Notes under the pieces: model-generated | Told to the model about the DNA's origin: nothing | Databases searched by the model: none | What the model saw: only the letters and a program-made list of their open reading frames with translations | Position numbers and translations under genes: made by a program | NCBI GenBank assembly: GCA_022825505.1 | Contig: JAJDWR010000022.1 | Location: forward strand, 15,046 to 79,045 | Origin: Gammaproteobacteria bacterium | Lineage (GTDB): Bacteria > Pseudomonadota > Gammaproteobacteria > Steroidobacterales > Rariloculaceae | Direction of reading: 5' to 3' | Length of the DNA: 64,000 nucleotides | In this document: piece by piece, positions 18,744 through 41,468 of the stretch | How positions within the stretch are numbered: position 1 is the stretch's first letter | How the letters are laid out: each line of letters begins with the position of its first letter

Positions 18744-19733
18744 ATGATCCGCATCAGCGCGTTTTTCTTCCTGGCGATGCCCCTGGCGGCAAACGCTCAT
18801 CACTCGGTGGCCGCATTCTACGAACCGGATGCCACAAGCGAGGTCGCCGGGACCATCACCGAAGTCAACTGGGTGAATCCGCACATCAGTTTCTCGGTGG
18901 AATCGATCAACGACGACAACGAAGTGGAAACCTGGACGATCGAATCGGGTCCCGCAAACGGCATGGCCAGAAACGGGATCACCCGGGATGTGCTCGAGGT
19001 GGGAACGGACGTCACCGTGGTCGGACGGCCCTCAAGTCGCGGCCAGATGGCATTGTACGCATCATCCGTGCGCCGCGCGGACGGTGAGAGCGTTGCCTTG
19101 CGCGGCGTGGGCTCGCGCCCCGACCTGCTTCAGGCCTCGGCGGGGCCGGAGCCTGAAGGGATCTTCCGCGTCTGGTCCCGCGGGAGGGCCTTTGGCGATC
19201 ACGTAAACAACTCGCCCACCGGCTTCGAGCTCCCTTACACGCCGGCGGCCCAGGCAGCCCGGGACCAATACGACCCGGTCACCGACGATACCGCCCTGAA
19301 GTGCATACAACAGGGTATGCCCGGCATCATGGACAACCCCTACCCCATCGAGTTCGTTGCAGACGGTGACGATATCGAACTGCGGTTGGAAGAGTGGTCG
19401 GTGGTGCGCACGATCCACATGTCCGGCTACGACGATCCCGAGAGCCAGGTGTTTACCCGCCACGGCTATTCGGTCGGCCGCTGGGAGGGCAACACGCTCA
19501 TCGTGGAGACCTCGAAAATCGACTGGCCGTTCTTCGACGATGTCGGGACACCGCAGAGCATGGCGGTGGATATCGTCGAGCGCTTCGCGCTGAGTCCGGA
19601 CGCAAGCCGCCTCGACTACGAGATCACGGTCACCGATCCGGCGACCTTCACGGAGACCATCTCGCTGGACGGTTACTGGAACTGGGTTCCGGGCGAGGAA
19701 GTCAAGACCTACCAGTGCACGCCCTGGCTCTGA
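18744..19733 (+). CDS. secreted protein, uncharacterised AxA|HHS...NPH family (DUF6152-like N-terminal domain), paralogue 1
   Basis: Signal peptide MIRISAFFFLAMPLAANA followed by HHS. NPH lies 29 residues after the first His. Shares a C-terminal module (GYSVGRWEGNTLIVETS, VERFALS, TVTDPATFTE, YQC) with three other ORFs in this window. Confidence 0.7.
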   Translation: MIRISAFFFLAMPLAANAHHSVAAFYEPDATSEVAGTITEVNWVNPHISFSVESINDDNEVETWTIESGPANGMARNGITRDVLEVGTDVTVVGRPSSRGQMALYASSVRRADGESVALRGVGSRPDLLQASAGPEPEGIFRVWSRGRAFGDHVNNSPTGFELPYTPAAQAARDQYDPVTDDTALKCIQQGMPGIMDNPYPIEFVADGDDIELRLEEWSVVRTIHMSGYDDPESQVFTRHGYSVGRWEGNTLIVETSKIDWPFFDDVGTPQSMAVDIVERFALSPDASRLDYEITVTDPATFTETISLDGYWNWVPGEEVKTYQCTPWL

Positions 19734-19785
19734 ACCAAATCATCTCCGTCGCGTCTAATCGGATAAATGGCTGACGGTCGAGCTG

Positions 19786-20196
19786 ATGTCCCGATTCAAT
19801 TCGCTTGCTGATTCACCCTGGGCTTTCTGGGCAGGTTCTCTGCTCTGGCTGCCCGCAGGGGTAGTGCTGACGGCACTTTTTCGCTTTCCCGATCAACTGT
19901 TCAGCCCCATGGGCTGGATGATGCTGCTTGGCGGCCTGGCCTCGTTGATATTCGTCGCCCCGTGCGGACTGCCGCTGGCGCTCGGATGCCGCGAGCTCTG
20001 GAAGCGCGGTTACCGCCAGGCAGCGTGGGCCTCGATGGTCGTGCTGGGGGTGGTTTCCGTTGGCGCAACGTTGCTCGCCGGGCTCCTTGGCCCGATCGCG
20101 ATCGCGGTATACGCGATCATCCTCAGCCTGCCGGTGTGGCTTGCCGTCGGTGTGGTCAGCGTCCTGCAGCGCCGGCGGGCAGAGTCCGCCGGCTAA
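19786..20196 (+). CDS. small integral membrane protein, unknown function
   Basis: 136 aa with about four hydrophobic helices. No recognisable motif. Confidence 0.45.
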   Translation: MSRFNSLADSPWAFWAGSLLWLPAGVVLTALFRFPDQLFSPMGWMMLLGGLASLIFVAPCGLPLALGCRELWKRGYRQAAWASMVVLGVVSVGATLLAGLLGPIAIAVYAIILSLPVWLAVGVVSVLQRRRAESAG

Positions 20197-20256
20197 GAGG
20201 CTGCGCCGCAGGAAATCACGGCGGCAAACTCGCTCTCGTCCGCCGCGTCGACCGCT

Positions 20257-21123
20257 CTATTCGGCGGTCAGCGACTCGTAGACCCCCTGAACGTTGAGCG
20301 CCCGCCAGGCGTCGTACTGCGCCCAATCGCTGTAGTCTTCCATGAGTACGGACGCCTGGGCCTCCTCCAGGCTCATGCCGGCATCCACCGCCTCGCTGAC
20401 GGCGGCCAGGAGTTCTTCCAGGTAGCCGGTCGTATCGTCCACGTCGGCCTTGGTCCCTACCGGGCCGTGGCCGGGGGCCATGATGTCGTAGTCCACCGTG
20501 GACTGCAGGTTTTGGTTGGCCTCGATCCATGACGTGATCGGACCCCACCCGGACATGGTCTGGAACGGCACGCGCTGGACATTGACGAAGTCCACGGCGA
20601 ACACCGCACGCTCGTCGGGGAAATGGATGATCGAGGAGTCGTTGCTGTGACTCGGGAGCGCGTGGATCATCTCCACGGTCTTGCCGCCCAGCGTCACGCT
20701 GGTGCTGTCGGAGTAGGTGGTATCCGGCGCGCGGACTTCGGCGAAGACTTCGTTGCCCTCCTCCGCGGCGAGGTTGACCACCGTGTTGTCGTGGCCCACG
20801 AATTCGGCGGTGTCCTCGAACACGGCCCCGCCCGAGGCGTGGTCATCGTGGTAGTGGCTGTACAGCACGTACCGCACCGGGACGCCGAAGCGCTCATCCA
20901 GCTCACCCTTCAGCCACGTCGCAAAGTCCGTGCTGATGGGATCGGTGAGAATGATGCCCTCGTCCGTCACCAGGAATACGTTGTGATGGGCGTTGTTCGT
21001 GGCCCGGTAGAGGTCCCCCGTGATGTTGACGATCTCCCGGAAGGGCTCATCCTGCGCCAGTGTCATTGGCGTAGCGGCCAGTGCCAGGACGCCCGCTGCA
21101 AATGCGGTCAGTTTGATATTCAT
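20257..21123 (-). CDS. secreted metallo-beta-lactamase-fold hydrolase
   Basis: Start at ATG 21123 (MNIKLTAFAAGVLALAATPMTLAQ signal peptide). HxHxDH motif (SHYHDDHASG). Confidence 0.75.
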   Translation of the reverse strand: MNIKLTAFAAGVLALAATPMTLAQDEPFREIVNITGDLYRATNNAHHNVFLVTDEGIILTDPISTDFATWLKGELDERFGVPVRYVLYSHYHDDHASGGAVFEDTAEFVGHDNTVVNLAAEEGNEVFAEVRAPDTTYSDSTSVTLGGKTVEMIHALPSHSNDSSIIHFPDERAVFAVDFVNVQRVPFQTMSGWGPITSWIEANQNLQSTVDYDIMAPGHGPVGTKADVDDTTGYLEELLAAVSEAVDAGMSLEEAQASVLMEDYSDWAQYDAWRALNVQGVYESLTAE

Positions 21124-21391
21124 GCCGTCTCCTCCTGTATTCCAAGCTGCGGATAGTTCTTCTTCGAGACTCCGATCCGAGTTTAACGCGTCCCCGCGCG
21201 CGCACAAACCCGAAATGCGGCTCGGGCCGCGATCAGAGCCGGCGGTGAACGCCGAATACAGCATGGACCGGCCACCCGGCGCCGGGTGTGTGCCATGGCG
21301 GACAGGGATTCGCCGTGACACTCCGGTGACAATTCGAGCGGCCCGATGCCTAACCTAGGACGCCCCGATACCGAACGCGCGGCCTGCATAC

Positions 21392-22723
21392 GTGTTGGAA
21401 GAACTTGGCATTGTCGGAGTCTCCTGGCGCCAGGACGGCAGCGAAGCCCTGGCACGCTTCGCCCTGCCGGAGGCCGGACGCGATGAGCGCCTGCGTGGTT
21501 TCGCGCGGCAGGCCGGTCTTGCGGAACTCGCATATCTCGATACCTGCAACCGGGTCGAGATCCTCTTCGCGCGCGCCGCCGACAGCGCTCCGGGCGATAC
21601 ACGCCACGATGACATACGCCCCCTGGCGTACGAACTCCTCGCGGGGCGAACACCGGCCCCCGGGGAAGCGGAGCGAACGCTCAAGGCATGGCAGGGCGAA
21701 GGCGCCTGCGAACACCTGTTCCTGGTGGCGGCCGGGCTGGACTCGGCGGCGGTGGGCGAAGTGGAGATTGTCGGGCAGGTTCGTGCCTGCCGCGATCTTG
21801 CGGCCGAAACGGGATTGAGCGGACCGCGGCTGGAACTGCTCTTCGAAGAGGCGCTGAGCATCGCGGCACGGGTACGGGGCACAACCCGCCTCGGCCACGG
21901 TCGCGTATCGCTGGCCGAGGTGGCGGTGGTGCGACTCCGCGAGCGGCTGAAGCGAACGCCCGGAGCCGTGGCGCTGGTGGGGGTATCGGCCATGACCGAG
22001 CGTGCGGCACGCTCGCTGGCGAAGGCGGGAACACCGTTGATCTTCGTCAATCGAACGCTGGCCAAGGCCCGGTTGGCGGCTCAGCCCTACTCCGCGGCGG
22101 CCGTATGCCTGGCCGACTTTCTGCGCGATCCGCCGGCCGTGGAGGTTGTCCTGAGTTCCGCCGGCGCGCCCGAACCACTACTGACGGAACCCGCGCTGGA
22201 ACGCATCGCCGCGAAATCGCCGTCCGGTCAGGCGCCGCTCTTCGTCGACATGGCCGTACCGGAAAACATCGACAGCGCCGCCTGCGAAAAGCTCGGGCTG
22301 CCCCGTATCGGCATGGACGAAATTGTCCGTGAAGCGCAGGTCAACCGGGAGGCCCGGCTGCTGGAGGCAGCCCAGGCCCGTCAGCTGGTGGACCAGGCCC
22401 TGCCGCGGCTCCGGGACCGGTTTGCCGAGCGCGTTTACGGCCCAATGTTCGGCGCGCTGCAGAACCGCTACCGCCACACCGCCCGGGAAGGCGTGCGGCG
22501 GCTGCTGAAGAAGGACCTCAAGGGCCTCGGGGATGCGGAGCGTCAGGCCATCGAGACCTGGGCGGAGGTGCTGGCGCGTCGCTTCGCCCATATTCCCACG
22601 CTGGGAATGAGAGGGCTCCTTCACCATGGACCCGACGGCTCGCTGGACGCCTTTCTCGAGGGCCTCGACCCGAAATTCTCCGAGGAGCTGCGTCAGGCCC
22701 TGGACCGTGGGGCAGTGCGATGA
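21392..22723 (+). CDS. hemA: glutamyl-tRNA reductase
   Basis: GTG start. Catalytic-Cys motif YLDTCNRVEI, GEVEIVGQVR, and an NADPH domain VALVGVSAMTE. Confidence 0.9.
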   Translation: MLEELGIVGVSWRQDGSEALARFALPEAGRDERLRGFARQAGLAELAYLDTCNRVEILFARAADSAPGDTRHDDIRPLAYELLAGRTPAPGEAERTLKAWQGEGACEHLFLVAAGLDSAAVGEVEIVGQVRACRDLAAETGLSGPRLELLFEEALSIAARVRGTTRLGHGRVSLAEVAVVRLRERLKRTPGAVALVGVSAMTERAARSLAKAGTPLIFVNRTLAKARLAAQPYSAAAVCLADFLRDPPAVEVVLSSAGAPEPLLTEPALERIAAKSPSGQAPLFVDMAVPENIDSAACEKLGLPRIGMDEIVREAQVNREARLLEAAQARQLVDQALPRLRDRFAERVYGPMFGALQNRYRHTAREGVRRLLKKDLKGLGDAERQAIETWAEVLARRFAHIPTLGMRGLLHHGPDGSLDAFLEGLDPKFSEELRQALDRGAVR

Positions 22724-23778
22724 AACTCCGCATCGGAACCCGGGGGTCCCATCTCGCCCGCACCCAGGCGGCCGGCGTTGCCGAATCACTGGCTGATCTC
22801 GGCCACGGCTCCGATCTCAGGATCATCAAGACCGCGGGCGATCGTTCCACGGCCACCTCGTTCGGGTCCATCGGCCCTCAGGGTGTCTTCGTGCGCGAGA
22901 TCGAGCACGCCTTGCTCGCCGGCAAAGTGGATATCGCGATCCACTCCTTCAAGGATCTGCCCACCCAGTCACCGGACGAGCTGACCATCGGGGCGGTACC
23001 GGAACGGCTTGACCCTGCCGACGTATTGGTGACGACACGGGAGGCGGCTTCCGTGTCGGCGGAAGCCCTGCCTGTCGTCAGCGGCGCCCACGTGGGGACG
23101 GCATCGGCCCGGCGCCAGGCGTGGATCCGGCATCTTCGGCCGGACATCGTGGTGGTGCCCATTCGCGGCAACGTGCCGACGCGCATCGACCGGCTGCGGA
23201 CGGACCTGGACGGCGTGGTGCTCGCGGCGGCGGGAATCCAGCGTCTGCGCCGGAGTCCGCTGGACGGCGTCGCCGATCCGGTAACGGATGAAATCGCGGT
23301 TCACAGGCTCAGGCCGGTGGATTTCGTTCCCGCACCGGCCCAGGGGGCGCTGGCGATCCAGTGCCGGCGAGGCGACGCCGAAATTTGCGAACTGCTGGAT
23401 TTTCTTGACCACGCCGCGACCCGCCAGGCGGTGCGGGCCGAACGCGCGCTGTTGGCACGGGTGGAGGGCGGTTGCGACCTGGCCTTCGGCGCGTGGTGTG
23501 ACGTTCCGGCTTCATGGGGAGGATCGCCGTCCGGCCGTCACGGTACTGACGCTTCGTCGAGTGGTCGCGCCGACAGGCCGGTCACGGGTCAGGTCCGGCT
23601 CGTCGCCTGGCTCGACCGCGGCGGCATGCTTCTCAAGGCCGATACGCGCACGCCGGATGCCGACCCCTGCGCCCCGGAAACAACCGCGACGACATCGAAC
23701 GCCGACGCGCGCGCATCGGAATTCGACCTGGCGGTGAACACGGCATGGACAGAACTGGAGCGGCAATGGACCGGGTGA
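22720..23778 (+). CDS. hemC: hydroxymethylbilane synthase (porphobilinogen deaminase)
   Basis: MKLRIGTRGSHLARTQA, HSFKDLP, IRGNVPTRI, VEGGCDLAFGA (cofactor Cys). ATGA overlap with hemA. Carries a low-complexity insertion and a C-terminal extension. Confidence 0.9.
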   Translation: MKLRIGTRGSHLARTQAAGVAESLADLGHGSDLRIIKTAGDRSTATSFGSIGPQGVFVREIEHALLAGKVDIAIHSFKDLPTQSPDELTIGAVPERLDPADVLVTTREAASVSAEALPVVSGAHVGTASARRQAWIRHLRPDIVVVPIRGNVPTRIDRLRTDLDGVVLAAAGIQRLRRSPLDGVADPVTDEIAVHRLRPVDFVPAPAQGALAIQCRRGDAEICELLDFLDHAATRQAVRAERALLARVEGGCDLAFGAWCDVPASWGGSPSGRHGTDASSSGRADRPVTGQVRLVAWLDRGGMLLKADTRTPDADPCAPETTATTSNADARASEFDLAVNTAWTELERQWTG

Positions 23779-24620
23779 AGGGCCAGCGGGTGCTCATCAC
23801 GCGAGCCGCCGAAGACTGCGCCGCCTGGGCTTCACGACTGGCGGATGCCGGCGCGGTACCGCTGATGCTGCCGTGCATCGAGTGCCACCCCATCCGCGAT
23901 CCAGGCATCGACACGTGGCTTGCCGCAGCACTGCCGACGGCAGACTGGCTGGTGCTGACCTCCCGGCGTGGGGCCGAGGCACTGGATCGACTGATTTCCC
24001 GCATCGACTGGACTTCCACCGACAAGGCGACCATGGCAGCCATCCGAATTGCAGCCGTGGGGCCGGCGACCGAAGCTGCGGCAGCCTCGCTTCCCGGCCA
24101 GGTCGAACTCGTGGCGCCGGGCGGCACCGCGAAATCTCTCGCCGAGGCGCTGGCGGACCGCCTCCGTGCCCGCACGGCCGATGGCCCGCTACACGTCATG
24201 CGTGACAGTCCGCGGCAAGGGAACGGCGCCGCGCTGCGGCCGCCGTGGCGGTCAAATGCAGCGGGGGGTTCGCCACGGACTGCCAAATGCCTGATCGCCG
24301 TGGCGGAGAACGCGGGGAACATAGTGGAGGAAACGCTTGAGCAGGCAGGCGGCGACTGTCTGCGGCTTAACGTCTACCGCACAACGCCGGCCGCGCCGGG
24401 GACTTCAAAAAAGGCGCTCTCCGAACTGGGTGCGGATAAAATCCTCCTGGCGAGCCCCTCCGCGGTGACGGGGCTGGTGAACCGGCTTGAACTCGATGCG
24501 GCCGTGGAGATTCTGACGATCGGCCCTTCGACCACGCGGGCGGCCCGCGCCGCCGGACTGGCCGTGACCGCGGAGGCGCCCAGACCCAGTCTGGAAGGGC
24601 TGATGGAGGCCATGCAATGA
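23766..24620 (+). CDS. hemD: uroporphyrinogen-III synthase
   Basis: RVLITRAAED, WLVLTSRRGAEA, VYRT, ILLASPSAV pattern of HemD. Alternative ATG at 23745. Overlaps the hemC end. Confidence 0.75.
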   Translation: MDRVKGQRVLITRAAEDCAAWASRLADAGAVPLMLPCIECHPIRDPGIDTWLAAALPTADWLVLTSRRGAEALDRLISRIDWTSTDKATMAAIRIAAVGPATEAAAASLPGQVELVAPGGTAKSLAEALADRLRARTADGPLHVMRDSPRQGNGAALRPPWRSNAAGGSPRTAKCLIAVAENAGNIVEETLEQAGGDCLRLNVYRTTPAAPGTSKKALSELGADKILLASPSAVTGLVNRLELDAAVEILTIGPSTTRAARAAGLAVTAEAPRPSLEGLMEAMQ

Positions 24621-25621
24621 GCGAAACGAACGTTACCGTGCCGGGGCGGGTACGACCCAGGCGACTGCGCCGCAATCGGGTCATCCGCGATCTCGCGGCC
24701 GAGACCCGTCTCGCCCCGTCGCAGTTCATCGTGCCGCACTTCGTGCTGGCCGCCCGCAAGGCCGAGCGGCCCATCCCGTCCATGCCCGGCATCGCGGAAC
24801 TGGGCCTGGACAACCTGCTCGGCCGGGTCGCGGCGGACCTGGACCTGGGCATCCGCTCGGTGCTCCTGTTCGGCCATCCGGACGATGAAGGGCACAAGAC
24901 GCCCGACGGCCTGGCGGCGTGGGCCGGCGACGGTGCGGTGCAACGCGCGGTCCGCCGACTCAAGGCCGAATTCGGCGACGATCTGGTGGTCATGACCGAC
25001 GTCTGCCTGTGCGCCTACACCGATCACGGCCACTGCGGGATCGTCGACGGCGGTGACGTGGTCAACGACGCCTCCCTGGTTCCGCTGGTGCGCACCGCCC
25101 TGAGTCACGCCGAAGCCGGCGCCGACGCGGTCGCGCCCTCCGACATGATGGACGGGCGCGTCGCCGCCATCCGGGATGCCCTTGACGGGGCGGGGCACCA
25201 ACGGGTCATCCTGCTTGCCTACGCGGTCAAGTACGCTTCCGGCTACTACGGGCCGTTTCGCGACGCGGCGGACTCCGCACCGTCGTTCGGCGACCGGTGC
25301 AGCTACCAGATGGATCCGCGCAATGTCCGCGAGGCAATTCGGGAGGCGCAGCTTGACGAGCAGGAGGGCGCGGACATGCTGATGGTCAAGCCCGCACTGG
25401 CCTACCTCGACGTGATCCGGGCGGTACGCCGCGCCAGCAACCTGCCCCTGGCCGTATACAACGTGTCCGGGGAATACGCGGCGGTCAAGGCGGCAGCAGC
25501 CAACGGTTGGCTGGAAGAGGCGCAGGTCGTGCGGGAAAACCTGATGGCCATGCGCCGCGCCGGCGCCGACCTGATCATCACCTATCATGCCCGGGACGCT
25601 ATCGAGGGAGGTTGGCTGTGA
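24617..25621 (+). CDS. hemB: porphobilinogen synthase (Zn-type ALA dehydratase)
   Basis: RPRRLRRN, Cys-rich Zn site DVCLCAYTDHGHCG, APSDMMDGRV, MVKPALAYLD (Schiff-base Lys). ATGA overlap with hemD. Confidence 0.92.
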   Translation: MSETNVTVPGRVRPRRLRRNRVIRDLAAETRLAPSQFIVPHFVLAARKAERPIPSMPGIAELGLDNLLGRVAADLDLGIRSVLLFGHPDDEGHKTPDGLAAWAGDGAVQRAVRRLKAEFGDDLVVMTDVCLCAYTDHGHCGIVDGGDVVNDASLVPLVRTALSHAEAGADAVAPSDMMDGRVAAIRDALDGAGHQRVILLAYAVKYASGYYGPFRDAADSAPSFGDRCSYQMDPRNVREAIREAQLDEQEGADMLMVKPALAYLDVIRAVRRASNLPLAVYNVSGEYAAVKAAAANGWLEEAQVVRENLMAMRRAGADLIITYHARDAIEGGWL

Positions 25622-26973
25622 GCGAGCAACGCGTCAGTAAACGATCAACGCAGTGGTTCGACCGGGCGCTCGAGGTCCTGCCGGGCGGCGTGAGTTCCCC
25701 GGTACGGGCGTTCGGGAGCGTCGGGGGCACACCGCCCGTCATTCGAAGCGGTGACGGAGCCCATGTAGTCGACGTGGACGGTAACCGGTACCTGGACTTT
25801 GTCGGCTCGTGGGGCCCCCTGATACTGGGCCATGCCAACCGGCACGTGGTCAGCGCCGTGCTCGACGCCGTGCAGGGCGGCACATCCTTCGGCGCACCAT
25901 CCGCCGTGGAGATCGAATTGGCCGAGGAGGTGGTGGCCGGTTATCCGGGTATCGAACAGGTCCGCTTCGTCTCCTCCGGCACCGAAGCCGTCATGAGCGC
26001 CGTACGCCTCGCCCGGGGCGCCTCCGAACGCGACATCATCGTCAAGTTTTCCGGCTGCTATCACGGTCACGTGGACCACCTGCTGGTGGCGGCCGGCTCG
26101 GGGCTTGCGACGTTCGGCACCCCGTCATCATTGGGTGTGCCCGAACCGAGCGCATCGCAGACGCGCGTGCTGCCACTGGACGACGATGACGCCCTGGCTG
26201 CGCTCTTCGACCGGGAAGGCGACCGCATCGCCGCAGCCATCATCGAGCCCGTGCCCGCAAACAACGGCCTGCTTCTCCAGCGCCCCAGGTTCCTCGCCAC
26301 CTTGCGCGAGCATTGCACGCGCCACGGGGCGCTCCTGATCTTCGACGAGGTCATTTCCGGATTCCGCCTGGGCCCGGGCGGTGCGGCCGCTCACTACGGC
26401 GTGCAACCGGACCTCGCCACGTTCGGCAAGGTCATCGGTGGCGGCATGCCGGTGGGTGCGTTCGGGGGACCGCGGGAATTGATGCGGCACCTTGCACCGA
26501 CCGGCGGCGTTTACCAGGCCGGCACCCTGTCGGGGAACCCGGTGGCCATGACGGCCGGTCTGGCGACGCTCAGATACCTCCAGCAGTACGATTGCTGGGA
26601 AGGCCTGGAGGAACTGGGCCAGTACCTGAAACAGCGTCTCGGCAATGTCCTGAAGCGATCCGGCGTTCCGGCAACCCTGGTGCGCATCGGTTCGATTTTC
26701 TGGATCGCCTGGGGTTCGACCGCCGATCCGCGCTCCGCAGAGGCGATCCACCCGGATGCCGCAAGTATCTACCGCGACGTGTTTCACGGCCTGCTGGAAC
26801 GCGGTATCGCGCTGGCGCCGTCCGCCTACGAAGTCGGCTTCCTGTCGCTGGCTCATCGTCCCGGACACATCGACCTGCTCGCGGACACCCTTGCGGAAGT
26901 TCTCGACAACCTGAAACGCAAGGGCGATCCAACCGCTCCGGCAGACGCGGAACCGGCCGGGAGCCAGTCATGA
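25618..26973 (+). CDS. hemL: glutamate-1-semialdehyde 2,1-aminomutase
   Basis: GTG 25618 overlaps the hemB TGA. Motifs LPGGVSSPVRAF, SGTEAVMSAVRLAR, FDEVISGFR, TFGKVIGGG (PLP Lys), GTLSGNP. Confidence 0.92.
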   Translation: MSEQRVSKRSTQWFDRALEVLPGGVSSPVRAFGSVGGTPPVIRSGDGAHVVDVDGNRYLDFVGSWGPLILGHANRHVVSAVLDAVQGGTSFGAPSAVEIELAEEVVAGYPGIEQVRFVSSGTEAVMSAVRLARGASERDIIVKFSGCYHGHVDHLLVAAGSGLATFGTPSSLGVPEPSASQTRVLPLDDDDALAALFDREGDRIAAAIIEPVPANNGLLLQRPRFLATLREHCTRHGALLIFDEVISGFRLGPGGAAAHYGVQPDLATFGKVIGGGMPVGAFGGPRELMRHLAPTGGVYQAGTLSGNPVAMTAGLATLRYLQQYDCWEGLEELGQYLKQRLGNVLKRSGVPATLVRIGSIFWIAWGSTADPRSAEAIHPDAASIYRDVFHGLLERGIALAPSAYEVGFLSLAHRPGHIDLLADTLAEVLDNLKRKGDPTAPADAEPAGSQS

Positions 26974-28058
26974 TTCTCAAGCGCGATCCCAGCAAGGCGC
27001 TGTTGCTTGGTTTTCTCGCCCTGCTGGCCATTTCCACCGCACAGGTGGCATGGTGGGTCGCCGACCAGAGAGGCCTGGCGCGCCAGGAACGGGACCGTGT
27101 CACGGCACTTTACGAAGCCGACGCGCTGGCGGTAACCGCAGCGTTCGCCCAGGCCACGCCCCAACTGCCGGAACTGATGCCGCATCTCGAGATCGACCCG
27201 GAACTGGGCACGGCCACGGTGCGTCCGGAATCCCTGGAGGCGCTCGCCGCGGATGCCGACTCGCGAATCAACCGCTACACGTGGGAGGGGGGGTTCTTCC
27301 TGCTCGTTCTTCTCGGCGGCATGACCGTGCTGACACGCACCATCCGCTACGACACACAGCTCAGGAAGCGTCAGCAGAATTTTCTTGCGGCCGTCTCCCA
27401 CGAACTGAAGAGTCCGCTGGCCAGCATACGGCTGGCGGCCGAAACGTTGATCCGGCGATCGGACGGCGGCCACACCGAACGGCTGGCCCGGCGCATGCTC
27501 GAAGACGGCGAACGGCTGCTGCGCATGGTCGAGAATCTCCTGGATACCACCCGGCTCGAGGACGGCCGGATCGAACTGAAGGGAGAATCGGTGGATCTGA
27601 GCAGTGCGGTGACCGCGGAGGTGGCGCGCTACCTGGAACCTGCGCGCTCCCACGGCATCGAGATCCACGTCGATGTCTCCGATGAGTTGCGAATAGAGGC
27701 CGATCCCGTCGCCATCGAAACGGTGCTGCGAAACCTGCTGGACAACGCCATCAAGGCATGTGTCGCGGCCCGGGGGCGGAACGTGTGGGTCGACGCGCAA
27801 CCGGACGGGAGTGTCGTGCGGATCAACGTACGGGACGATGGCAGCGGTTTCCTGCCCGACGATGCCGCCATGATCTTCGAGAAGTTCTATCGCCTGGGCG
27901 ACGAAATGCGCCGCTCCACGCCGGGTACCGGGCTGGGGCTTTACCTGGTCCGCGGCCTCGCGGAACTCTCCGGCGCCCGCGTCAGCGCCGCCAGCGAGGG
28001 GCCGGGTCTCGGTGCGACCGTCACCGTGAAGTGGCCGGCCGCGAGTCCGCCGGCATGA
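26970..28058 (+). CDS. membrane sensor histidine kinase (two TM segments, about 85-aa periplasmic loop)
   Basis: ATGA overlap with hemL. H-box AAVSHELKSPLASI, N-box LRNLLDNAIKA, G-boxes DDGSGF and GTGLGLYLV. The upstream part of ORF 26313.. is R/G-rich and overlaps hemL, so it is rejected. Confidence 0.85.
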   Translation: MILKRDPSKALLLGFLALLAISTAQVAWWVADQRGLARQERDRVTALYEADALAVTAAFAQATPQLPELMPHLEIDPELGTATVRPESLEALAADADSRINRYTWEGGFFLLVLLGGMTVLTRTIRYDTQLRKRQQNFLAAVSHELKSPLASIRLAAETLIRRSDGGHTERLARRMLEDGERLLRMVENLLDTTRLEDGRIELKGESVDLSSAVTAEVARYLEPARSHGIEIHVDVSDELRIEADPVAIETVLRNLLDNAIKACVAARGRNVWVDAQPDGSVVRINVRDDGSGFLPDDAAMIFEKFYRLGDEMRRSTPGTGLGLYLVRGLAELSGARVSAASEGPGLGATVTVKWPAASPPA

Positions 28059-28774
28059 ACGCGGCGGCAAATCCGGCCCGGATCCTCGTGGTGGACGACG
28101 AGAAGCACCTGGCCGACGGCGTGTGCGAAATTCTCCGGGCCGAGGGCTATGCCGCAGAGGTGGCCCATGACGGAGTGGAAGGCTTGCGCAAGGCGCTTGC
28201 GCACAGCTTCGACCTGATTCTGCTGGACGTGATGATGCCGAAGATGGATGGGCTCAGAGCCTGCGAGGAACTGCGCCGCAACGGCCTGCACACGCCGGTG
28301 CTGTTTCTGACCGTCAAGGGCGCCCCCGAAGACCGCATTCGCGGTCTGGAAGCCGGCGGGGACGACTACCTGGCGAAGCCGTTTCATCTGAAGGAATTGC
28401 TGCTGCGCGTCGCCGCCATGCTGCGCCGCAGCCACTGGTACTCGCGCGCGGGGCAGACGCTCGGCTTCAACGGCAATACCATCGACTTTCTGACGTATCA
28501 CGCCACCGCGTGGGACGGCAGCGACCACACGCTGACCCACAAGGAAGCCATGATCCTTAAATTTCTGGCCGAACAGGACGGCGCGATCGTGCCGCGGGAA
28601 GACATCCTGGACCGGGTCTGGGGTTACGAGGTGTATCCGTCTACGCGCACCATCGACAACTTCATCGTGCGGCTGCGCAAGCGCTTCGAACGCAATCCCG
28701 AGATGCCGGAGCACTTCCATACCGTGCGCGGCGTCGGGTACCGGTTTACCCGGCATGCGGAGCAATCCCAATGA
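28055..28774 (+). CDS. OmpR/PhoB-family response regulator
   Basis: ATGA overlap with the kinase. Receiver motifs ILVVDDE, DLILLDVMMPKMDG, KG. Winged-helix C-terminus TVRGVGYRF. Confidence 0.88.
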   Translation: MNAAANPARILVVDDEKHLADGVCEILRAEGYAAEVAHDGVEGLRKALAHSFDLILLDVMMPKMDGLRACEELRRNGLHTPVLFLTVKGAPEDRIRGLEAGGDDYLAKPFHLKELLLRVAAMLRRSHWYSRAGQTLGFNGNTIDFLTYHATAWDGSDHTLTHKEAMILKFLAEQDGAIVPREDILDRVWGYEVYPSTRTIDNFIVRLRKRFERNPEMPEHFHTVRGVGYRFTRHAEQSQ

Positions 28775-30512: not shown

Positions 30513-30521
30513 GTCATCCCC

Positions 30522-31583: not shown

Positions 31584-33058
31584 CGAAAACGCATCGCTGC
31601 GAGGCGGTGGTGATCGGCGCGGGCCTGGCGGGACTCAACGCCGCCGTTCATCTCCAGGATGCCGGCCTGGACGTGCGGGTTGTCGAGGCTCGGAATCGGG
31701 TGGGCGGCAGGGTGCGGTCCATGCGTGAACTCGGCGGCAACCTGGAAGCCGGCGGCACCTACATCGGCGCTGCGTACCGGCGCGTGATCGCCGCGGCCGC
31801 GCGCCACGACGTGAGGCTCATCGACGTCACGCCCTCGCTGAAGTTTTTCAGGGAGCAGGACCTGGTGCTCGACGGCGCTATCATCCGCCAGTCCGAGTGG
31901 CCGGCTCATCCTGCCAACCCGTTTCCCAATCCGGACAGGGCGCTGATGCCCTGGACCTTCAGCCGAGTACTGACCGCCCGGGAGAACCCGCTGGAAGAAC
32001 CGCGGAACTGGCTGGACCCCCGGCAGACCGAGCACGACGTATCGATGTACGAATGGATGCGTGGACTCGGACTCGACGATAAGGCGATTCGGGTCGGTTA
32101 CGGGATGAATGTCAGCTACGGAGAGGATGCCCAAGACATATCGGCGCTTCAGTTGCTGTTTCGTGCGGCGTTCTCCAGGGCGCAAGCGAACACGTCCGCA
32201 ACGGCGGGTAGATTTCCCGGTGGCGAGTCGGCGCCATCTTCATCTTCATCTTCTGTGACCTCAACCGGCGCGAGGGGCTATACGGTTGCGGACGGTGTAC
32301 AGCGAATCCCCGAGGCGATGGCCGAGTCGCTGGTCCAGCCGGTACATTACGGCCGCACGGTCGGGCGGATAGAAGACGACGGCAGGCACGTCACCGTTTT
32401 CTGCGAGGGTGGCGCCGAGTACAAGGCAGCATACGCCGTCTGTGCCCTGCCCTTCACAGTCCTTCGCCGCATCGATTTCGACCCGCCATTGCACGGTTCC
32501 CAGCGGGAAGCCGTCGCGAGCCTGCCGTCCCAGTCCATGACCCAACTGTACTTCGCTCACAAATCCGAATTTTGGGAAGCGGACGAATATGCTCCGAGCC
32601 TGTTCACCGACACGGCCGCAGGCATGTTTTCTGCGATCCGCAACGGCAGCGATCCCACGCAAATCGCCGGGTTTTCGGCCTGGGTGATGGGTCGAAACGC
32701 GTCGCAGCTTGATGCTCTGCCGCCCGAATCGGCCGGTGCGCGGGTTATCGAGGAAATCGAAGCAGTGCGTCCGGCCGCTCGCGGGCAGTTGAAGTTCATC
32801 GGGCGGCAAAGCTGGGGAGCGGATCCCTTCGCCCGCGGCGCATGGGCCTATTTCCGTCCCGGACAGATCACCCGCTTCGCCGCCGCGATGGGCGCACCCC
32901 ACGGCCGGGTCCGGTTCTGCGGCGAGCACCTGGCCGTGGCCAACCGCGGGATGGAGGGCGCCATGGAGTCGGGCGAGAGCGCCGCAATGGGAATCCTTGC
33001 CCCGCGCCGGTCGCGCAAAGCCGAGCTTTCAAACCAATCTGACCAGCGCCACCATTAA
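31580..33058 (+). CDS. FAD-dependent amine-oxidase-family flavoprotein (MAO-like; candidate porphyrinogen oxidase)
   Basis: GTG 31580 overlaps the hemH TGA. Dinucleotide fold VVIGAGLAGLNAAVHLQDAGLDVRVVEARNRVGGR. C-terminal FCGEHLA...GMEGAMESGESAA typical of flavin amine oxidases. The ORF part 31109..31579 is R-rich, overlaps hemH, and is rejected. Confidence 0.75.
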   Translation: MTKTHRCEAVVIGAGLAGLNAAVHLQDAGLDVRVVEARNRVGGRVRSMRELGGNLEAGGTYIGAAYRRVIAAAARHDVRLIDVTPSLKFFREQDLVLDGAIIRQSEWPAHPANPFPNPDRALMPWTFSRVLTARENPLEEPRNWLDPRQTEHDVSMYEWMRGLGLDDKAIRVGYGMNVSYGEDAQDISALQLLFRAAFSRAQANTSATAGRFPGGESAPSSSSSSVTSTGARGYTVADGVQRIPEAMAESLVQPVHYGRTVGRIEDDGRHVTVFCEGGAEYKAAYAVCALPFTVLRRIDFDPPLHGSQREAVASLPSQSMTQLYFAHKSEFWEADEYAPSLFTDTAAGMFSAIRNGSDPTQIAGFSAWVMGRNASQLDALPPESAGARVIEEIEAVRPAARGQLKFIGRQSWGADPFARGAWAYFRPGQITRFAAAMGAPHGRVRFCGEHLAVANRGMEGAMESGESAAMGILAPRRSRKAELSNQSDQRHH

Positions 33059-33536: not shown

Positions 33537-34592
33537 ATGTACTATTCAGGCGCAATCAGGACCCTCACCTTACTATGGCTCTGGCTCCTTGCGGGCACCG
33601 CATTCGCACACCACTCGCTGCTCACTTACGATCCCGGCGAGATCGTCGAATTCGAGGGTGAAGTCACGAACGTGTTCTGGCGCAATCCCCACGTGCAGCT
33701 GACGGTCAGGACCACGGACGAGGACGGCGGCGAGCGGGTCTGGACCGCCGAAGGTTCTCCCGTCAACGCGATGGAGCGTGCGGGAATTACCGAGGCGGTG
33801 GTTTCCGTGGGGGAACGCGTCAGGGTGACGGCAAACCCTTCCAGGCTTGTCGAGGATGAGGCCAGACTCGTGCTGCTTACCCTGACCGATGGACAGTCGT
33901 TCGTGTTGAACACGGAGGCGGCCGCAGCGCTCGGCCTTCCGGCCTATACGTCACAGGCTGTCCCGGCAGGCGGCGCCGCGGTGGCCGGCGCCGAGGGCTA
34001 TCCCGAGGCTACCGGCATCTTTCGAGTCTGGACGAATCGCGACCGGCACTGGGTTGCGCGCGATGTCCGGGAGTGGTGGGCCAGGACCCACCCTCTGACG
34101 GAATCGGCCCAGGCCATGCTGGATGCGTGGGACCCGGTGGCGGACGATCCTGCAAGACAGTGCATTCCGGCTGGCATGCCCGAAGCCATGCTCATGCCCT
34201 TTCCGATCGAATTCGTCGATCAGGGCGACATCCTTGTTCTGAATATAGAAGAGTGGGACAACTCGCGCACGATTCACCTGAATGCGGATCCTGACGCGGA
34301 CATGCCTCCCTCACGGCTCGGCTATTCCGTCGGACGCTGGGAGGGCGACACGCTGATCGTGGAAACCAGCCGCATCGACTATCCTTACTTCAACGACCAG
34401 GGCATTCCGCAAAGCGAGGCTCTTGCGATGGTCGAGCGATTCACGCTCAGCGAAAACGGCACGAAGCTGGACTGGACGGCTACGGTGACCGATCCGGAAA
34501 CGTTCACGGAACCAATCATCATGCCGGAGTTCCACTGGGACTGGATCCCCGGGCAGGAGATCAAGCCCTACAACTGCGTCGTAGCCGAGTAA
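33537..34592 (+). CDS. secreted protein, AxA|HHS...NPH family, paralogue 2
   Basis: Signal peptide ...LLWLWLLAGTAFA followed by HHS, with NPH 28 residues on. Motifs GYSVGRWEGDTLIVETS, VERFTLS, TVTDPETFTEP, YNC. Alternative ATG at 33510. Confidence 0.7.
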   Translation: MYYSGAIRTLTLLWLWLLAGTAFAHHSLLTYDPGEIVEFEGEVTNVFWRNPHVQLTVRTTDEDGGERVWTAEGSPVNAMERAGITEAVVSVGERVRVTANPSRLVEDEARLVLLTLTDGQSFVLNTEAAAALGLPAYTSQAVPAGGAAVAGAEGYPEATGIFRVWTNRDRHWVARDVREWWARTHPLTESAQAMLDAWDPVADDPARQCIPAGMPEAMLMPFPIEFVDQGDILVLNIEEWDNSRTIHLNADPDADMPPSRLGYSVGRWEGDTLIVETSRIDYPYFNDQGIPQSEALAMVERFTLSENGTKLDWTATVTDPETFTEPIIMPEFHWDWIPGQEIKPYNCVVAE

Positions 34593-34665: not shown

Positions 34666-35313
34666 TCAGTCTGCCGCGAAGCAGTAGAACAGCCCGTCGC
34701 CGCCCGTACCGATCAGGTCTTCCTGACTGCAGCCGCGGCTGCTGTGCACCGCATTCCAGGACGCGCTCGGTCCACCCAGGCGATCATGGTGGCCTACCAT
34801 GGCCCGGCCCTCGCCGTTACTGGTCCAATTGTTGCAGGTGGTGATGTCGGCGGCACCGGGCGCTGCCCGGCCCATGGAGTCCGATCCGGTCAGAATGTCG
34901 TGCCGGTTGGGCTGGTCGCCCGCGCCGGCCACTTCGTTGCCGTTCTCGTCCACGGCGGTGGGCTTGCGGATGTTGTTGCGGTCCTCGTGGAGGCCGTCGA
35001 TGTCCCAGGCGATGTATACGCCGTTGGCGTTGTACCAGGGCCCGTCGCCGATGCGGTCGCGCGCATTGACCTGCGGTGCGCCCATCCCGGCGGCCTGGCT
35101 CAGGTAAGCGCGCCAGGCTGCATCGCCCCGCCCTACGGCGGAGGCGAGTGCCTGGCAGTGCGCATCGGCGCCCTCGAGCCCTCCCAGATTTGCCCCGTCG
35201 CCCGGACCGACGCTGGTTATGAAGAAACTCATGGGCGGCTGATCCTGGGCGATACCCAGCATCGAAACCGCAGCCAATGCCATTCCGGCCAAAAGAACTC
35301 TTGTCGCTTTCAT
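34666..35313 (-). CDS. secreted endostatin/DUF1554-like (C-type-lectin-fold-like) protein
   Basis: Signal peptide MKATRVLLAGMALAAVSMLGIAQD. Then SFFITSVGPGDGANLGGLEGADAHCQALA and AWRAYLS, which I recall as the DUF1554/endostatin-like pattern. Four Cys. Confidence 0.4.
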   Translation of the reverse strand: MKATRVLLAGMALAAVSMLGIAQDQPPMSFFITSVGPGDGANLGGLEGADAHCQALASAVGRGDAAWRAYLSQAAGMGAPQVNARDRIGDGPWYNANGVYIAWDIDGLHEDRNNIRKPTAVDENGNEVAGAGDQPNRHDILTGSDSMGRAAPGAADITTCNNWTSNGEGRAMVGHHDRLGGPSASWNAVHSSRGCSQEDLIGTGGDGLFYCFAAD

Positions 35314-35415
35314 TCTCATCTCCTTCGCTTGTACTTCATCCCCCGGCGTCCGCGGCGCAGGAAATTGCGGCAGTGAATTCGCCATCAAGGTTTCCTGCCC
35401 ATCGGACTCCAAAGG

Positions 35416-36321: not shown

Positions 36322-36332
36322 AGTTGAATCCT

Positions 36333-38342: not shown

Positions 38343-39374
38343 TCAGCGTCCCAGTTCGGGGTGCGTGCAATCGTATTGGCGGGGCGCCTGGTCGGAGGCA
38401 GCGAATGTTCGGGTATCCGTTACGGGTGCGGTGTAATAGAGCGCATCCTCGCTGACGATGGTCAGTTCGAAGGTGTCGCCCGCCTGCCCCAGCGTCAGCC
38501 GTTCCACGGTGTGGAGCTGGTTGCTGTGCGGCATTCCGGGATGCTGCGCCAGCATCCCCGCCTCGTAGCCGACGGTATCGATCACCAGCGTCGAGCCTTC
38601 GTACCGGCCGATGGAGTGCCCCAGGACGCGATCCTCGAGATCCGCGGGATGTTCGTCCATGTCGAGGCGGACCTCCCGTACGGCGTCCATCCATTCGTGC
38701 CGAATGACGACGCGGTCCCCGGTCTGTTCGATCTCGGTGAGGTCGTTATTGCCCCAAAGCCGCCGGATGCTCACCGGGCTGCAGGTCAGGGCGGGATCGT
38801 CCAGCACCGGATCGTACCGTGCCAGGGCCTCGCGGCCGGCGTCGTTGAGCACGCCGGCCAGACGGTTGGGACCGCCGAGTTGCGGACCGCCGCCGCCCCC
38901 ACCGCCGCCGCCGGACCGCTGCCAGACCCGGCTGAAGTCGGGCACGTCCGCCGGAACGGCCACACGGGCAGCGCGGGGGGCCGAAGCCGGTACTACCGCA
39001 TCGAACGTGTCGCCGAGTGCGATCACACGGCCGTCCGCAAACTCCGCGGTTTCAAAGTAGCACTCGGCGTCGTGACGCCTCGCCGCAAATCCCTGCACGA
39101 CGATGTCGTCGCCGGGCCGGAAGACGTCCCGCGTCCACCCGCGCCTCATCAGGCCGTTGGATCCCGACATCTCGCAGTCCCAGGTCACTACCGATCCGTC
39201 GTCCCCGGTGACGTCGATCAACAGCCGGGCATGCGGATTGATGAAGCGGAACAGCTTGACCGTCCCGCTGACGGTGACACCGACGTTGCGGTCGAAGTGA
39301 TAGTCGTTGGAGTGGTGGGCGTGGGCGGTCCCCGCGACCATGCCTGCCACGAATGCTGCGGTGATCCGGTTCAT
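38343..39374 (-). CDS. secreted protein, AxA|HHS...NPH family, paralogue 3 (poly-Gly linker)
   Basis: Signal peptide MNRITAAFVAGMVAGTAHA followed by HHS, NPH at +29, a run of nine Gly. Motifs LGHSIGRYEGSTLVIDT, VERLTL, YDC. Confidence 0.7.
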   Translation of the reverse strand: MNRITAAFVAGMVAGTAHAHHSNDYHFDRNVGVTVSGTVKLFRFINPHARLLIDVTGDDGSVVTWDCEMSGSNGLMRRGWTRDVFRPGDDIVVQGFAARRHDAECYFETAEFADGRVIALGDTFDAVVPASAPRAARVAVPADVPDFSRVWQRSGGGGGGGGGPQLGGPNRLAGVLNDAGREALARYDPVLDDPALTCSPVSIRRLWGNNDLTEIEQTGDRVVIRHEWMDAVREVRLDMDEHPADLEDRVLGHSIGRYEGSTLVIDTVGYEAGMLAQHPGMPHSNQLHTVERLTLGQAGDTFELTIVSEDALYYTAPVTDTRTFAASDQAPRQYDCTHPELGR

Positions 39375-39529
39375 GATTCTCCCCTCCGTGTATTTTCGAA
39401 TCGCCTGGGAATCAAGGGCCGCAGAACGATTCTACCCCAGCCCGGGTTTCCGTCGCTGGCGCGGTTGAATCCCCAATGCTATGTTGGGCATCCTGACCAA
39501 CCTGCTCGAGTTCCGGGGAGAGAAGTAAC

Positions 39530-40327
39530 ATGAAAAGAGCCGGACTGACACGAATTCTCGCATCCCTGACCGTACTTTCGCTCCTGCCGGCGGGAACCGT
39601 ACTGGCGCAGAGCGTCTTCACTCACGCTCATTACCGGGTTCCGGAGGGGCAGCAGGAGGCGGCGGCGGAATGGTACAACCGCGTGCTGGGCGGAGAACCT
39701 GGTGAAATCGGGCCGGGGCCGGGCATCCGCCACCCCAACGGCTTTGTCGGCACCATGCCCAACGAGGGCATGGCGGGGGACGGCGCGGTCAATGTCCTCG
39801 ATCACATTGGAATTACCGTGCCCGATGTGCAGGCCGCCGTGGACCTGATCCGGGAAATCGGCGGGGAAATACGGACCGAACCGCAGGAAGGCGTCACCGC
39901 GCCCGTGATCGCCCACGTCACGGATCCCTGGGGCGGCCGCTTCGAACTGCTGGAAGACCCCGACTATCCGGGTATCAACCACGCGCATATCTTCGCCTCC
40001 GATGCGGACGCCACACGGGACTGGTTCCTGCAGGTGTTCGGCGGCGAATTGAACGAGGCACGCGGTCAGGGCCGTTTTCACACCATTCTCTACGACAACG
40101 TCTGGATCCACATCAGCCAGACGCCGGAGGACGCACCGAGGATGTCGAGCCGGTTCCGGGCCGCCGATCACATCGGTTTCAGGGTCCCGTCGCTGGACGA
40201 ATTCCGCGAGACCCTGCGGGCGTCCGGGTACGAACCCTATCTCGAACGCCCCAATCCTCCAGGCGCGGACCTCATGTTCCTGGAGGGTCCTGACGGACTG
40301 CACATCGAGATGACGGAACCCCTGTGA
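39530..40327 (+). CDS. secreted two-domain VOC (glyoxalase/bleomycin-resistance/dioxygenase) family protein
   Basis: Signal peptide MKRAGLTRILASLTVLSLLPAGTVLAQS. Two repeats of the VOC pattern (LDHIGITVPD...DPWGGRFELL and ADHIGFRVPS...GPDGLHIEM). Confidence 0.65.
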   Translation: MKRAGLTRILASLTVLSLLPAGTVLAQSVFTHAHYRVPEGQQEAAAEWYNRVLGGEPGEIGPGPGIRHPNGFVGTMPNEGMAGDGAVNVLDHIGITVPDVQAAVDLIREIGGEIRTEPQEGVTAPVIAHVTDPWGGRFELLEDPDYPGINHAHIFASDADATRDWFLQVFGGELNEARGQGRFHTILYDNVWIHISQTPEDAPRMSSRFRAADHIGFRVPSLDEFRETLRASGYEPYLERPNPPGADLMFLEGPDGLHIEMTEPL

Positions 40328-40337
40328 GAGGCAACCA

Positions 40338-41444
40338 ATGAAACGCTGGCACGTATCGCTTTTCGCAGCCGTCGGCACAGTTGGCCTTTTCGGCCTTGCC
40401 GACGCCCATCACTCCCGGGGCAATTTCGATCTCGACGACGTGATCGAACTCCACGGCACGGTCACCGAATACACCTGGCGAAATCCGCATACCTTCGTGA
40501 CCCTGGACGTCGAGAACGATGCCGGCGAGGTGGAAGAATGGCTGCTGGAACTCAACTCCATCGCCGTGCTCACCGGTACCGGGTGGACGCGCGACACCAT
40601 CCGGGTGGGCGACAGCGTGACCGTGTTCGGCAATCCGGACAACGACCGCAGCAAGAAATTCTTCTTCTCCAACTACTTCGTATTGCCCGACGGCAGCCGC
40701 ATGGTGTCGGCGCCGAACTATTCGCGCGGCGTGCCCATTCAGCGCCCGCCCGAGCGGGAACTGGACACCACCGCGAGTTCCGGCGACTTCACCGGCATCT
40801 GGCGGCGGGAAGGCGGCATGGGCGGCGGCATGGGGATGGGCGGCGGCGGTGCACCCGCGGCCGGACCTCCGCCGGCAGGCGCCAACATCTCCCTCGGAAA
40901 CCAGACGCCTGCCATGGGTCTGTCGGTTACGGCGCGAGGTCAGGCGGAGCTGGACAACTGGGACGTGCGCGACAACCCGTGGTTCCGGTGCGAGCCGAGA
41001 ACGCTTCCCGGGGTCGTCAGCGGCACCCAGGAGATTCTCCGGCCGACCGAAGACCGAATCGCTTTCCGCTACGAAATCCTGGAGGTGGAGCGTACCGTCC
41101 ACCTGGGCCTGACCGGCCATCCTTCCGATGTCGAGCCCTCCCACCTGGGCCATTCCATCGGCTGGTTCGAGGACGAAAGCCTGGTGGTGGATACGGCGTT
41201 GTTCTCCCCCGCGGACTGGGGCATCGGCGCCGGGGTGCCCTCCAGCGACCTCAAGCACGTGGTGGAGCGATACACCCTGCTCGATGGCGGCAGGCGCATG
41301 CAGGTTGACTACACCTTCGAGGATCCGGTCTACCTTGCGGAACCGGTGAACATGTCAGCCACGTTCTTTGTGGATCCGGGGTACCCATGGGCGGAGTACG
41401 ACTGCGATCCGCATGCCAGCAGCCGGCATCTGGATGTCGAATAG
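40338..41444 (+). CDS. secreted protein, AxA|HHS...NPH family, paralogue 4 (Gly/Met-rich linker)
   Basis: Signal peptide ...GTVGLFGLADA followed by HHS, NPH at +28, linker GGMGGGMGMGGGG. Motifs LGHSIGWFEDESLVVDT, VERYTLL, YDC. Lies 10 nt after the VOC gene. Confidence 0.7.
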   Translation: MKRWHVSLFAAVGTVGLFGLADAHHSRGNFDLDDVIELHGTVTEYTWRNPHTFVTLDVENDAGEVEEWLLELNSIAVLTGTGWTRDTIRVGDSVTVFGNPDNDRSKKFFFSNYFVLPDGSRMVSAPNYSRGVPIQRPPERELDTTASSGDFTGIWRREGGMGGGMGMGGGGAPAAGPPPAGANISLGNQTPAMGLSVTARGQAELDNWDVRDNPWFRCEPRTLPGVVSGTQEILRPTEDRIAFRYEILEVERTVHLGLTGHPSDVEPSHLGHSIGWFEDESLVVDTALFSPADWGIGAGVPSSDLKHVVERYTLLDGGRRMQVDYTFEDPVYLAEPVNMSATFFVDPGYPWAEYDCDPHASSRHLDVE

Positions 41445-41468
41445 GAGACTGATTGGAGGAGAACCAAG

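Follow-up and report, generated by a model that had tools for sequence, protein, structure and literature searches.

Secreted DUF6152 proteins with a putative N-terminal-histidine metal site and a predicted calycin-like barrel, encoded as fusions or as adjacent genes

Results

Four genes for predicted secreted two-module proteins

The window analyzed here is a 64,000-nucleotide stretch of contig JAJDWR010000022.1 (Gammaproteobacteria bacterium, assembly GCA_022825505.1), which belongs to a 494-kb metagenome scaffold. It carries four paralogous genes for predicted secreted proteins of 329-368 amino acids (aa), labelled P1 (18744..19733, +, 329 aa), P2 (33537..34592, +, 351 aa), P3 (38343..39374, -, 343 aa) and P4 (40338..41444, +, 368 aa). 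These open reading frames (ORFs) had been proposed in an earlier inspection of the DNA letters and their translations (hereafter the sequence-only reading). All four are genuine genes at the stated coordinates, and they show coding-type third-position GC content (GC3, 0.76-0.82) and a purine-rich upstream stretch resembling a ribosome-binding site. A six-frame hmmsearch of the whole window with the family profile detected no fifth copy, and promoter and terminator scans gave no excess over shuffled expectation.

Each of P1-P4 begins with a positively charged n-region followed by a hydrophobic h-region; an AxA box comes next (ANA, AFA, AHA and ADA, respectively), with HHS directly after. In P1, the signal peptide, MIRISAFFFLAMPLAANA, spans 18744-18797 and is immediately followed by HHS at 18798-18806, with an NPH motif at 18876-18884. 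The corresponding positions in P2 are 33537-33608 (ending in LLAGTAFA), 33609-33617 and 33684-33692; in P3, 39318-39374 (ending in VAGTAHA), 39309-39317 and 39231-39239; and in P4, 40338-40406 (ending in LFGLADA), 40407-40415 and 40482-40490. The His of NPH lies 28, 27, 28 and 27 residues past His1 in P1 to P4, that is, at mature position 28-29. The succession of signal peptide, AxA box and HHS described in the sequence-only reading was thus recovered in each protein, as was the invariant NPH.

Below, the N-terminal ∼100 aa are called the N-domain and the C-terminal ∼190 aa the C-module. In P1 the N-domain maps to ∼18798-19097 and the C-module to ∼19161-19730; C-modules of the other three lie at ∼34017-34589 (P2), 38346-38936 (P3) and 40788-41441 (P4). 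All four contain the motifs G[YH]S[VI]G[RW][WYF]E..[TS]L[IV][VI][ED]T and VER[FLY].L in their C-terminal part, and two conserved Cys, one mid-protein and one in a Y-x-C near the C-terminus (codons 19302-19304 and 19716-19718 in P1, 34161-34163 and 34575-34577 in P2, 38781-38783 and 38367-38369 in P3, 40989-40991 and 41403-41405 in P4). Motifs and Cys are therefore present as first described, except that P1 reads HGYSVG and not LGYSVG. The P3 N-domain carries two additional Cys, and a Gly9 linker is found in P3 at 38886-38912. The interdomain linker of P4, GGMGGGMGMGGGG (40812-40850), is rich in Met and Gly and resembles Met-rich Cu(I) loops. Such linkers are confined to a small P4 clade, comprising P4 and 2 of 261 homologues (P0121 and P0221), which rules out a Met-rich, copper-like linker as a feature of the family.

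A histidine cluster is conserved throughout DUF6152

The N-domain was identified as Pfam DUF6152 (PF19649), with scores of 69.6, 65.5, 78.5 and 85.5 bits for P1-P4 (E 1e-18 to 1e-24) against a gathering cut-off of 27 bits. The resemblance to DUF6152 noted in the sequence-only reading was thus verified. Beyond DUF6152, P1-P4 gave no other match in Pfam or NCBIfam.

NPH was present in 261 of 268 retrieved homologues, among which the DUF6152 domain was always N-terminal. Every one of the 261 also carried HH 26-31 residues upstream of NPH, the distance being 26-28 in 257 of them. The residue preceding HH (position -1) was A in 204, G in 29 and S in 24 homologues, accounting for 257/261, and position -3 was occupied by A, V, T, S, L, G or I in these full-length sequences. 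The third mature residue was S, A or G. Since residues at -1 and -3 correspond to signal peptidase I specificity and the position of HH is strictly conserved, secretion and cleavage immediately before HH, as predicted in the sequence-only reading, are supported.

We extended the comparison to 80 further loci (numbered with the prefix L), where HH...xPH was found in 195/195 N-domains with a covered N-terminus. Across 196 N-domains, from proteins with and without a fused C-module, the only conserved non-Gly residues were H1, H2, N27, P28, H29, W46 and R58, and no Met was conserved. The family-wide conservation of H1, H2 and NPH was thereby established, and the HH-to-NPH pattern is far beyond chance. 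Because H1, H2 and N27-P28-H29 are among the sole residues shared by all forms, the His cluster appears to be the functional signature of DUF6152. Such strict placement of two His at the very start of the processed protein, with a constant spacing to a third invariant His in a turn, is most simply accounted for by a metal site involving the free alpha-amine. A site built on the N-terminal His is accordingly the most economical reading of these sequences, and we return to it after describing the second module and the genes nearby.

The C-module also exists as a stand-alone gene beside DUF6152

No Pfam or NCBIfam model covers the C-module, in line with the earlier impression that it lay outside recognized families. 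The DUF6152 model spans the N-domain only, and the link between DUF6152 and the fused ∼190-aa module is unrecorded in either database. Together with the window, the 80 further loci hold 134 fused, 62 N-domain-only and 50 C-module-only ORFs. Stand-alone C-modules adjoin stand-alone short DUF6152 genes in L001-L006 and L083-L085, where they matched the C-module hidden Markov model (HMM) with E-values of 1e-11 to 4e-28 (hhalign probability 91-94%).

OZ244860.1 (Ca. Rariloculaceae), the closest genome to that of the window, encodes a P1 orthologue with 90% identity and also an operon-like row consisting of a metallo-beta-lactamase (MBL) hydrolase, a 269-aa protein, a 336-aa protein and a 129-aa DUF6152 protein. 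The 269- and 336-aa proteins are remote C-module homologues (hhalign 91-94%; HMM E 1e-11 to 1e-12). Similar rows were found in cultured Alphaproteobacteria, with C-module HMM E-values of 1e-12 to 4e-28. Croceibacterium atlanticum carries DUF6152, DUF6152, C-module and a TonB receptor in succession; Sphingobium sp. TomTYG65 has two tandem C-module/DUF6152 pairs, followed by two genes for DUF6644 membrane proteins and one for a TonB receptor; and the pairing recurs in Novosphingobium humi, Novosphingobium sp. PP1Y and KACC 22771, and Sinorhizobium mexicanum. At least 5,326 proteins make up the stand-alone C-module family; every one is annotated as hypothetical and lacks a Pfam domain. We conclude that the C-module also occurs as a stand-alone secreted protein beside short DUF6152 genes, which is new here. 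The side-by-side arrangement identifies P1-P4 as fused versions of a two-gene unit, and the existence of the modules as separate adjacent genes in many genomes indicates that they act as a unit.

In 7/8 alphaproteobacterial loci, the DUF6152 cassette adjoins one or two genes for DUF6644-type four-helix membrane proteins, which are homologous to a Sinorhizobium meliloti protein annotated as DUF2214 (99%). In L003, L004 and L082-L086, the adjacent DUF6644/DUF2214-type proteins share one invariant His and end in a GRWI motif. In S. meliloti and Azospirillum, short DUF6152 is accompanied by the DUF6644-type protein alone, with no barrel protein; the two S. meliloti genes overlap (stop/start at 6363) and are translationally coupled. 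No DUF6644 gene was found near fused genes, either in gammaproteobacterial metagenome-assembled genomes (MAGs) or in the window. Small multi-pass membrane ORFs do adjoin P1 (19786-20196, +) and P2 (33055-33555, -); they were rejected as DUF6644 equivalents, being unrelated to DUF6644 and to each other and lacking a family assignment. An analogy with CopD was likewise rejected: hhalign of DUF6644 against Escherichia coli CopD/YebZ returned a probability of 0.2%, and there was no CopD Pfam match.

Predicted structures of the two modules

An AlphaFold2 model of mature P1, based on a 63-sequence alignment, reached a predicted local distance difference test (pLDDT) score of 89.9 and a predicted template modelling (pTM) score of 0.86, a high value for a two-domain protein that suggests defined packing of the domains. 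In this model the N-domain is a five-stranded oligonucleotide/oligosaccharide-binding (OB) fold in which NPH forms the beta1-beta2 turn. Its fold matches in the PDB include single-stranded DNA-binding proteins and the anticodon-binding domain of lysyl-tRNA synthetase.

The C-module modelled alone gave a pLDDT of 93.4. Its best PDB fold matches were FABP4, CRABP2 and iFABP (E 3.5e-4 to 5e-3; template modelling (TM) score normalized to the target, 0.51-0.63), with lipocalins and siderocalins matching more weakly. These matches suggest a calycin-like barrel with a helical insert, and we treat the C-module as a predicted FABP/calycin-like barrel, bearing in mind that no match to calycins was detected at the sequence level. 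Residues conserved between fused and split C-modules are C169, C307, R204, S225, W229, T238, E261-R262 and D280; the invariant Cys pair would fit a periplasmic disulfide. No close PDB fold match was found for either module, and no structure has been solved for any member of either.

A large family of old paralogues

Counted as cluster representatives at 50% identity, profile matches numbered 24,904 at E<=1e-3; tightening the threshold to E<=1e-10 left 12,039, and E<=1e-30 left 858. Nearly all of the top 150 matches listed were 320-380 aa long and matched end to end. Fused forms were found only in MAGs, namely of Ca. Rariloculaceae, other uncultured Gammaproteobacteria, “Rhodospirillaceae” and a few Terriglobia, and their genes often occupy several loci per genome, also as tandem runs.

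P1-P4 share 28-44% pairwise identity, and their closest relatives in other genomes are 91, 56, 46 and 57% identical, respectively; P1 orthologues with 90-91% identity occur in Ca. Rariloculaceae-type genomes. Such values indicate old paralogues and not a recent local amplification. The lineage-specific expansion first suggested by four copies in one window therefore stands insofar as these genomes carry strikingly many copies of the family, but not as an account of P1-P4 themselves, each of which is closer to proteins of other genomes.

Gene neighbourhood and alternative roles

We took a census of 170 ORFs near family genes, in two sets (70 and 100), recording the 25 commonest Pfam families of each. 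RidA proteins were found 8 times, amidohydrolases and NHL or lactonase-type propellers 6 times each, sulfatases 5 times, cupins 5 times (5/100), M28 peptidases and Abhydrolase_10 proteins 4 times each, and TRAP transporter components 3 times. TonB receptors, with 7 occurrences, were the most frequent large neighbour (7/70), and in L002, L003 and L085 they lie beside the split cassette; NCBIfam typed the adjacent receptors only generically.

The frequency of these receptors would fit a non-metal periplasmic binding or shuttle protein, in which the barrel and the His cluster, acting as an anion or polar clamp, take TonB-imported organic nutrients to periplasmic hydrolases or, in Alphaproteobacteria, to inner-membrane DUF6644/DUF2214 partners. 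The predicted FABP-like barrel and the adjacency of DUF6644 genes in most alphaproteobacterial loci fit such a role, as do the nearby regulators, which are of TetR, MarR, LysR or AraC type and not metal sensors, and the many diverged paralogues, which recall substrate-binding families. A shuttle would, however, leave unexplained both the exact N-terminal placement of the His in every member and the barrel-less DUF6152-DUF6644 pairs of S. meliloti and Azospirillum, and we consider it doubtful.

Several neighbours in the window itself are predicted metalloenzymes or have folds of that kind. A secreted SoxH-like/B1-like zinc hydrolase of the MBL fold (20257..21321, -; real start probably near 21123) is convergent with P1, with one small ORF between them, and its homologues directly adjoin fused genes in at least eight loci (L001, L031, L044, L050, L051, L052, L058 and L077). 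A two-domain VOC/glyoxalase-fold protein with a signal-peptide-like N-terminus (39530..40327, +) ends 10 bp before P4, and a small cupin, also with a signal-peptide-like N-terminus (41469..41903, +), starts 24 bp after it. The common strand and the short gaps suggest that this trio (39530-41903) is probably co-transcribed. VOC and cupin folds are typically metal-dependent.

An enrichment of metal-dependent periplasmic enzymes of this type among the neighbours (MBL, amidohydrolases, M28, cupins and VOC) raises the alternative of a periplasmic metallochaperone for Zn, Ni or Cu, which would load adjacent secreted metalloenzymes or hand its metal to a membrane transporter, as in the CopC-CopD and YcnI-YcnJ pairs. 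SoxH-like MBL homologues beside the long forms and the translational coupling of S. meliloti short DUF6152 to a small membrane protein both favour it, and copper trafficking is the role of most bacterial histidine-brace derivatives (PMC10952591). Weighing against a chaperone are the lack of any copper, zinc or nickel homeostasis family among the commonest neighbour families, the failure to detect CopD similarity in DUF6644, the unexplained role of a conserved ligand-type barrel, and the presence of dozens of paralogues per genome, which would be unusual for a chaperone. We find a chaperone role unlikely but regard Zn or Ni chaperoning of the many adjacent metallohydrolases as a serious alternative.

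Genes for redox or reactive oxygen species (ROS) functions stand directly beside family genes in five unrelated loci (L003, L085, L006, L084 and L007). They encode a peroxiredoxin in L003 (5158-5829) and, together with a cytochrome c next to the cassette, in L085 (3142-4765); an Fe/Mn superoxide dismutase (SOD) in L006 (7116-7829); and HbpS-like proteins in L084 (4321-4815) and L007 (9116-9415).

P1 and P2 flank a haem-biosynthesis cluster (21392-33058) composed of hemA, hemC, hemD, hemB and hemL, then hemE, a chlorite-dismutase-like gene (HemQ/ChdC-type), hemH and an amine-oxidase/HemY-like gene, with a histidine kinase/response regulator pair embedded at 26313-28774. We take this set to be the coproporphyrin-dependent haem branch, unusual for a gammaproteobacterium. 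The arrangement in the window, the HbpS-like neighbours and the fact that calycin barrels can bind haem would together suit a haem- or tetrapyrrole-binding protein, with His providing the axial ligands and the barrel a nitrobindin-like haem pocket. However, haem-biosynthesis genes were absent from the commonest neighbour families and from the annotated genes of the inspected loci, P1 orthologues lie in different contexts, and no haem-binding Pfam family was matched. A link to the hem operon was rejected because this context is not conserved in the loci inspected, and a haem-binding role is most improbable.

Other neighbours were noted in passing. Upstream of P1 (16038-18701) are cobalamin salvage genes (an aminotransferase and CobU) and an APH-type kinase, syntenic with L005 1-9403; in L005, the locus of a P1 orthologue, genes for a BtuB-type TonB receptor and for an ABC importer come next, and downstream synteny is lost. 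A secreted DUF1554-like protein (weak Pfam match; 34666-35412, -) is convergent with P2 and recurs near family genes in L068, L079 and L052 (12173-13640), the last with two tandem copies directly after the fused gene. Finally, three unrelated genomes have genes of sulfur metabolism on the flanks of the cassette. In L082 (S. meliloti, 3899-11707) these are cysD and the genes for PAPS reductase and choline sulfatase; in L003 (11952-16129), tauD and the genes for alkanesulfonate monooxygenase and a sulfonate-binding protein; and in L005 (12344-15562), two sulfatase genes.

Discussion

A putative metal site on the processed N-terminus

We favour a reading in which P1-P4 are periplasmic or secreted two-module proteins, each combining a putative metal site at the N-terminal His with a ligand-binding barrel, and give it a probability of roughly 0.45. 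In a histidine brace, the amino group and N-pi of His1 plus the N-tau of a second His surround Cu, and an N-terminal His is an intrinsic chelator preferring Cu(II) (PMC10952591). By analogy, signal peptidase I would expose His1, which could supply its free amine and its imidazole to a mononuclear metal site completed by His2, by the His of NPH in the beta1-beta2 loop, or by both. Residues 1-13 may run back along the 13-residue beta1, which would bring His1 beside N27-P28-H29. Both candidate second ligands, His2 and His29 of NPH, are invariant, and a histidine-brace arrangement is a plausible hypothesis. Copper would be the likeliest metal, given the Irving-Williams preference, the analogy with other N-terminal-His proteins and the redox/ROS neighbours; Zn or Ni could also be bound.

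A variable linker joins the predicted DUF6152 OB-fold to the predicted Cys-paired barrel in each protein, and the barrel might hold a small organic ligand beside the metal site. The metal centre could then serve in binding or in redox chemistry of the oxidase or peroxygenase type, and not in copper homeostasis, with diverged paralogues possibly serving different ligands or partner enzymes in the periplasmic processing of imported organic matter.

Several observations weigh against this picture. The predicted OB-fold is not among known histidine-brace scaffolds, and in the P1 model the first ten residues have a pLDDT of 80, below that of the domain core. The calycin match is weak, with query-normalized TM of 0.40-0.46 (∼0.4), and no PDB entry matches the family by sequence, P4 and the profiles A1 and A2 all giving only low-complexity or insignificant hits as queries. 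Furthermore, no copper-homeostasis family was among the 25 commonest of either neighbour set, and the gene surroundings are heterogeneous and offer only anecdotal hints of any one function.

A bolder version of the metal-site reading, which we think quite unlikely, would make DUF6152 a new and very large class of periplasmic N-terminal-His copper centres on an OB-fold that, with the barrel, form small-molecule oxidases or peroxygenases, in effect a lytic polysaccharide monooxygenase (LPMO) acting on soluble substrates. Heterotrophs of marine waters and sediments would then use dozens of paralogues on recalcitrant dissolved organic matter, with electrons and peroxide handled by the peroxiredoxin, SOD and cytochrome c encoded nearby. 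Literature searches on DUF6152, DUF6644, DUF2214, and on a histidine brace or N-terminal His on a periplasmic OB-fold, found nothing relevant.

Independently of any metal site, at least 5,000 un-modelled secreted barrel proteins are now linked to DUF6152 by fusion and adjacency, a functional partnership that is testable. The scale is large, with very high copy numbers of the family in uncultured Gammaproteobacteria of marine and sediment origin, and Sinorhizobium, Novosphingobium, Sphingobium and Croceibacterium provide tractable cultured hosts for genetics. Taken together, our results demonstrate a family that is real, strongly conserved and uncharacterized, and whose fused/split relation and recurring partners are new.

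Comparison with known systems

Like CopC/PcoC and YcnI, family members are predicted to be exported by the Sec pathway and to present an invariant His as residue 1 after cleavage, with a distal conserved His, on a small beta-rich domain. The pairing of short alphaproteobacterial DUF6152 with a small inner-membrane protein likewise recalls CopC-CopD and YcnI-YcnJ. The fold differs, however, being a predicted OB-fold where CopC is cupredoxin-like and YcnI has the DUF1775 fold. There is no sequence similarity, the family adds an invariant His2, copper genes are missing from the commonest neighbours, and the domain is fused to or paired with a calycin-like barrel, with a membrane partner lacking detectable CopD similarity.

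The family shares with LPMOs (AA9-AA17) and X325/Bim1 a secreted location, a presumably exposed His1 and large sets of paralogues in degraders, and neighbours that include carbohydrate and other hydrolases and redox partners. Unlike LPMOs, which are immunoglobulin (Ig)/fibronectin type III-like beta-sandwiches with a flat substrate face, it combines a predicted OB-fold with a predicted enclosed barrel, which suggests small-molecule ligands. P1-P4 had no Pfam match to LPMO_10, GH61, CopC or YcnI at E<=1. LPMO, CopC, PmoB and YcnI all have Ig-like or cupredoxin-like folds. On fold, homology and copper-gene context, the family thus falls outside the established brace families.

CusF resembles the N-domain in being a small periplasmic five-stranded OB-type barrel in which a His and a Trp close to the putative site are conserved. 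The CusF site consists of His-Met-Met and a Trp cation-pi contact, and not of an N-terminal His; the family has no conserved Met ligands, no CusF Pfam match and no cus genes nearby, and CusF was not among the top 50 fold matches of the N-domain. ZinT/YodA offers a periplasmic calycin-type barrel with an N-terminal His motif in metal capture, but its three-His site lies on the barrel, whereas the histidines of this family are on a separate OB-fold, and there is no sequence similarity. To our knowledge, all characterized histidine-brace or N-terminal-His copper sites are built on Ig-like or cupredoxin-like sandwiches. A brace on an OB-fold, if true, would give these copper centres, few in number but important in biology and industry, a new scaffold.

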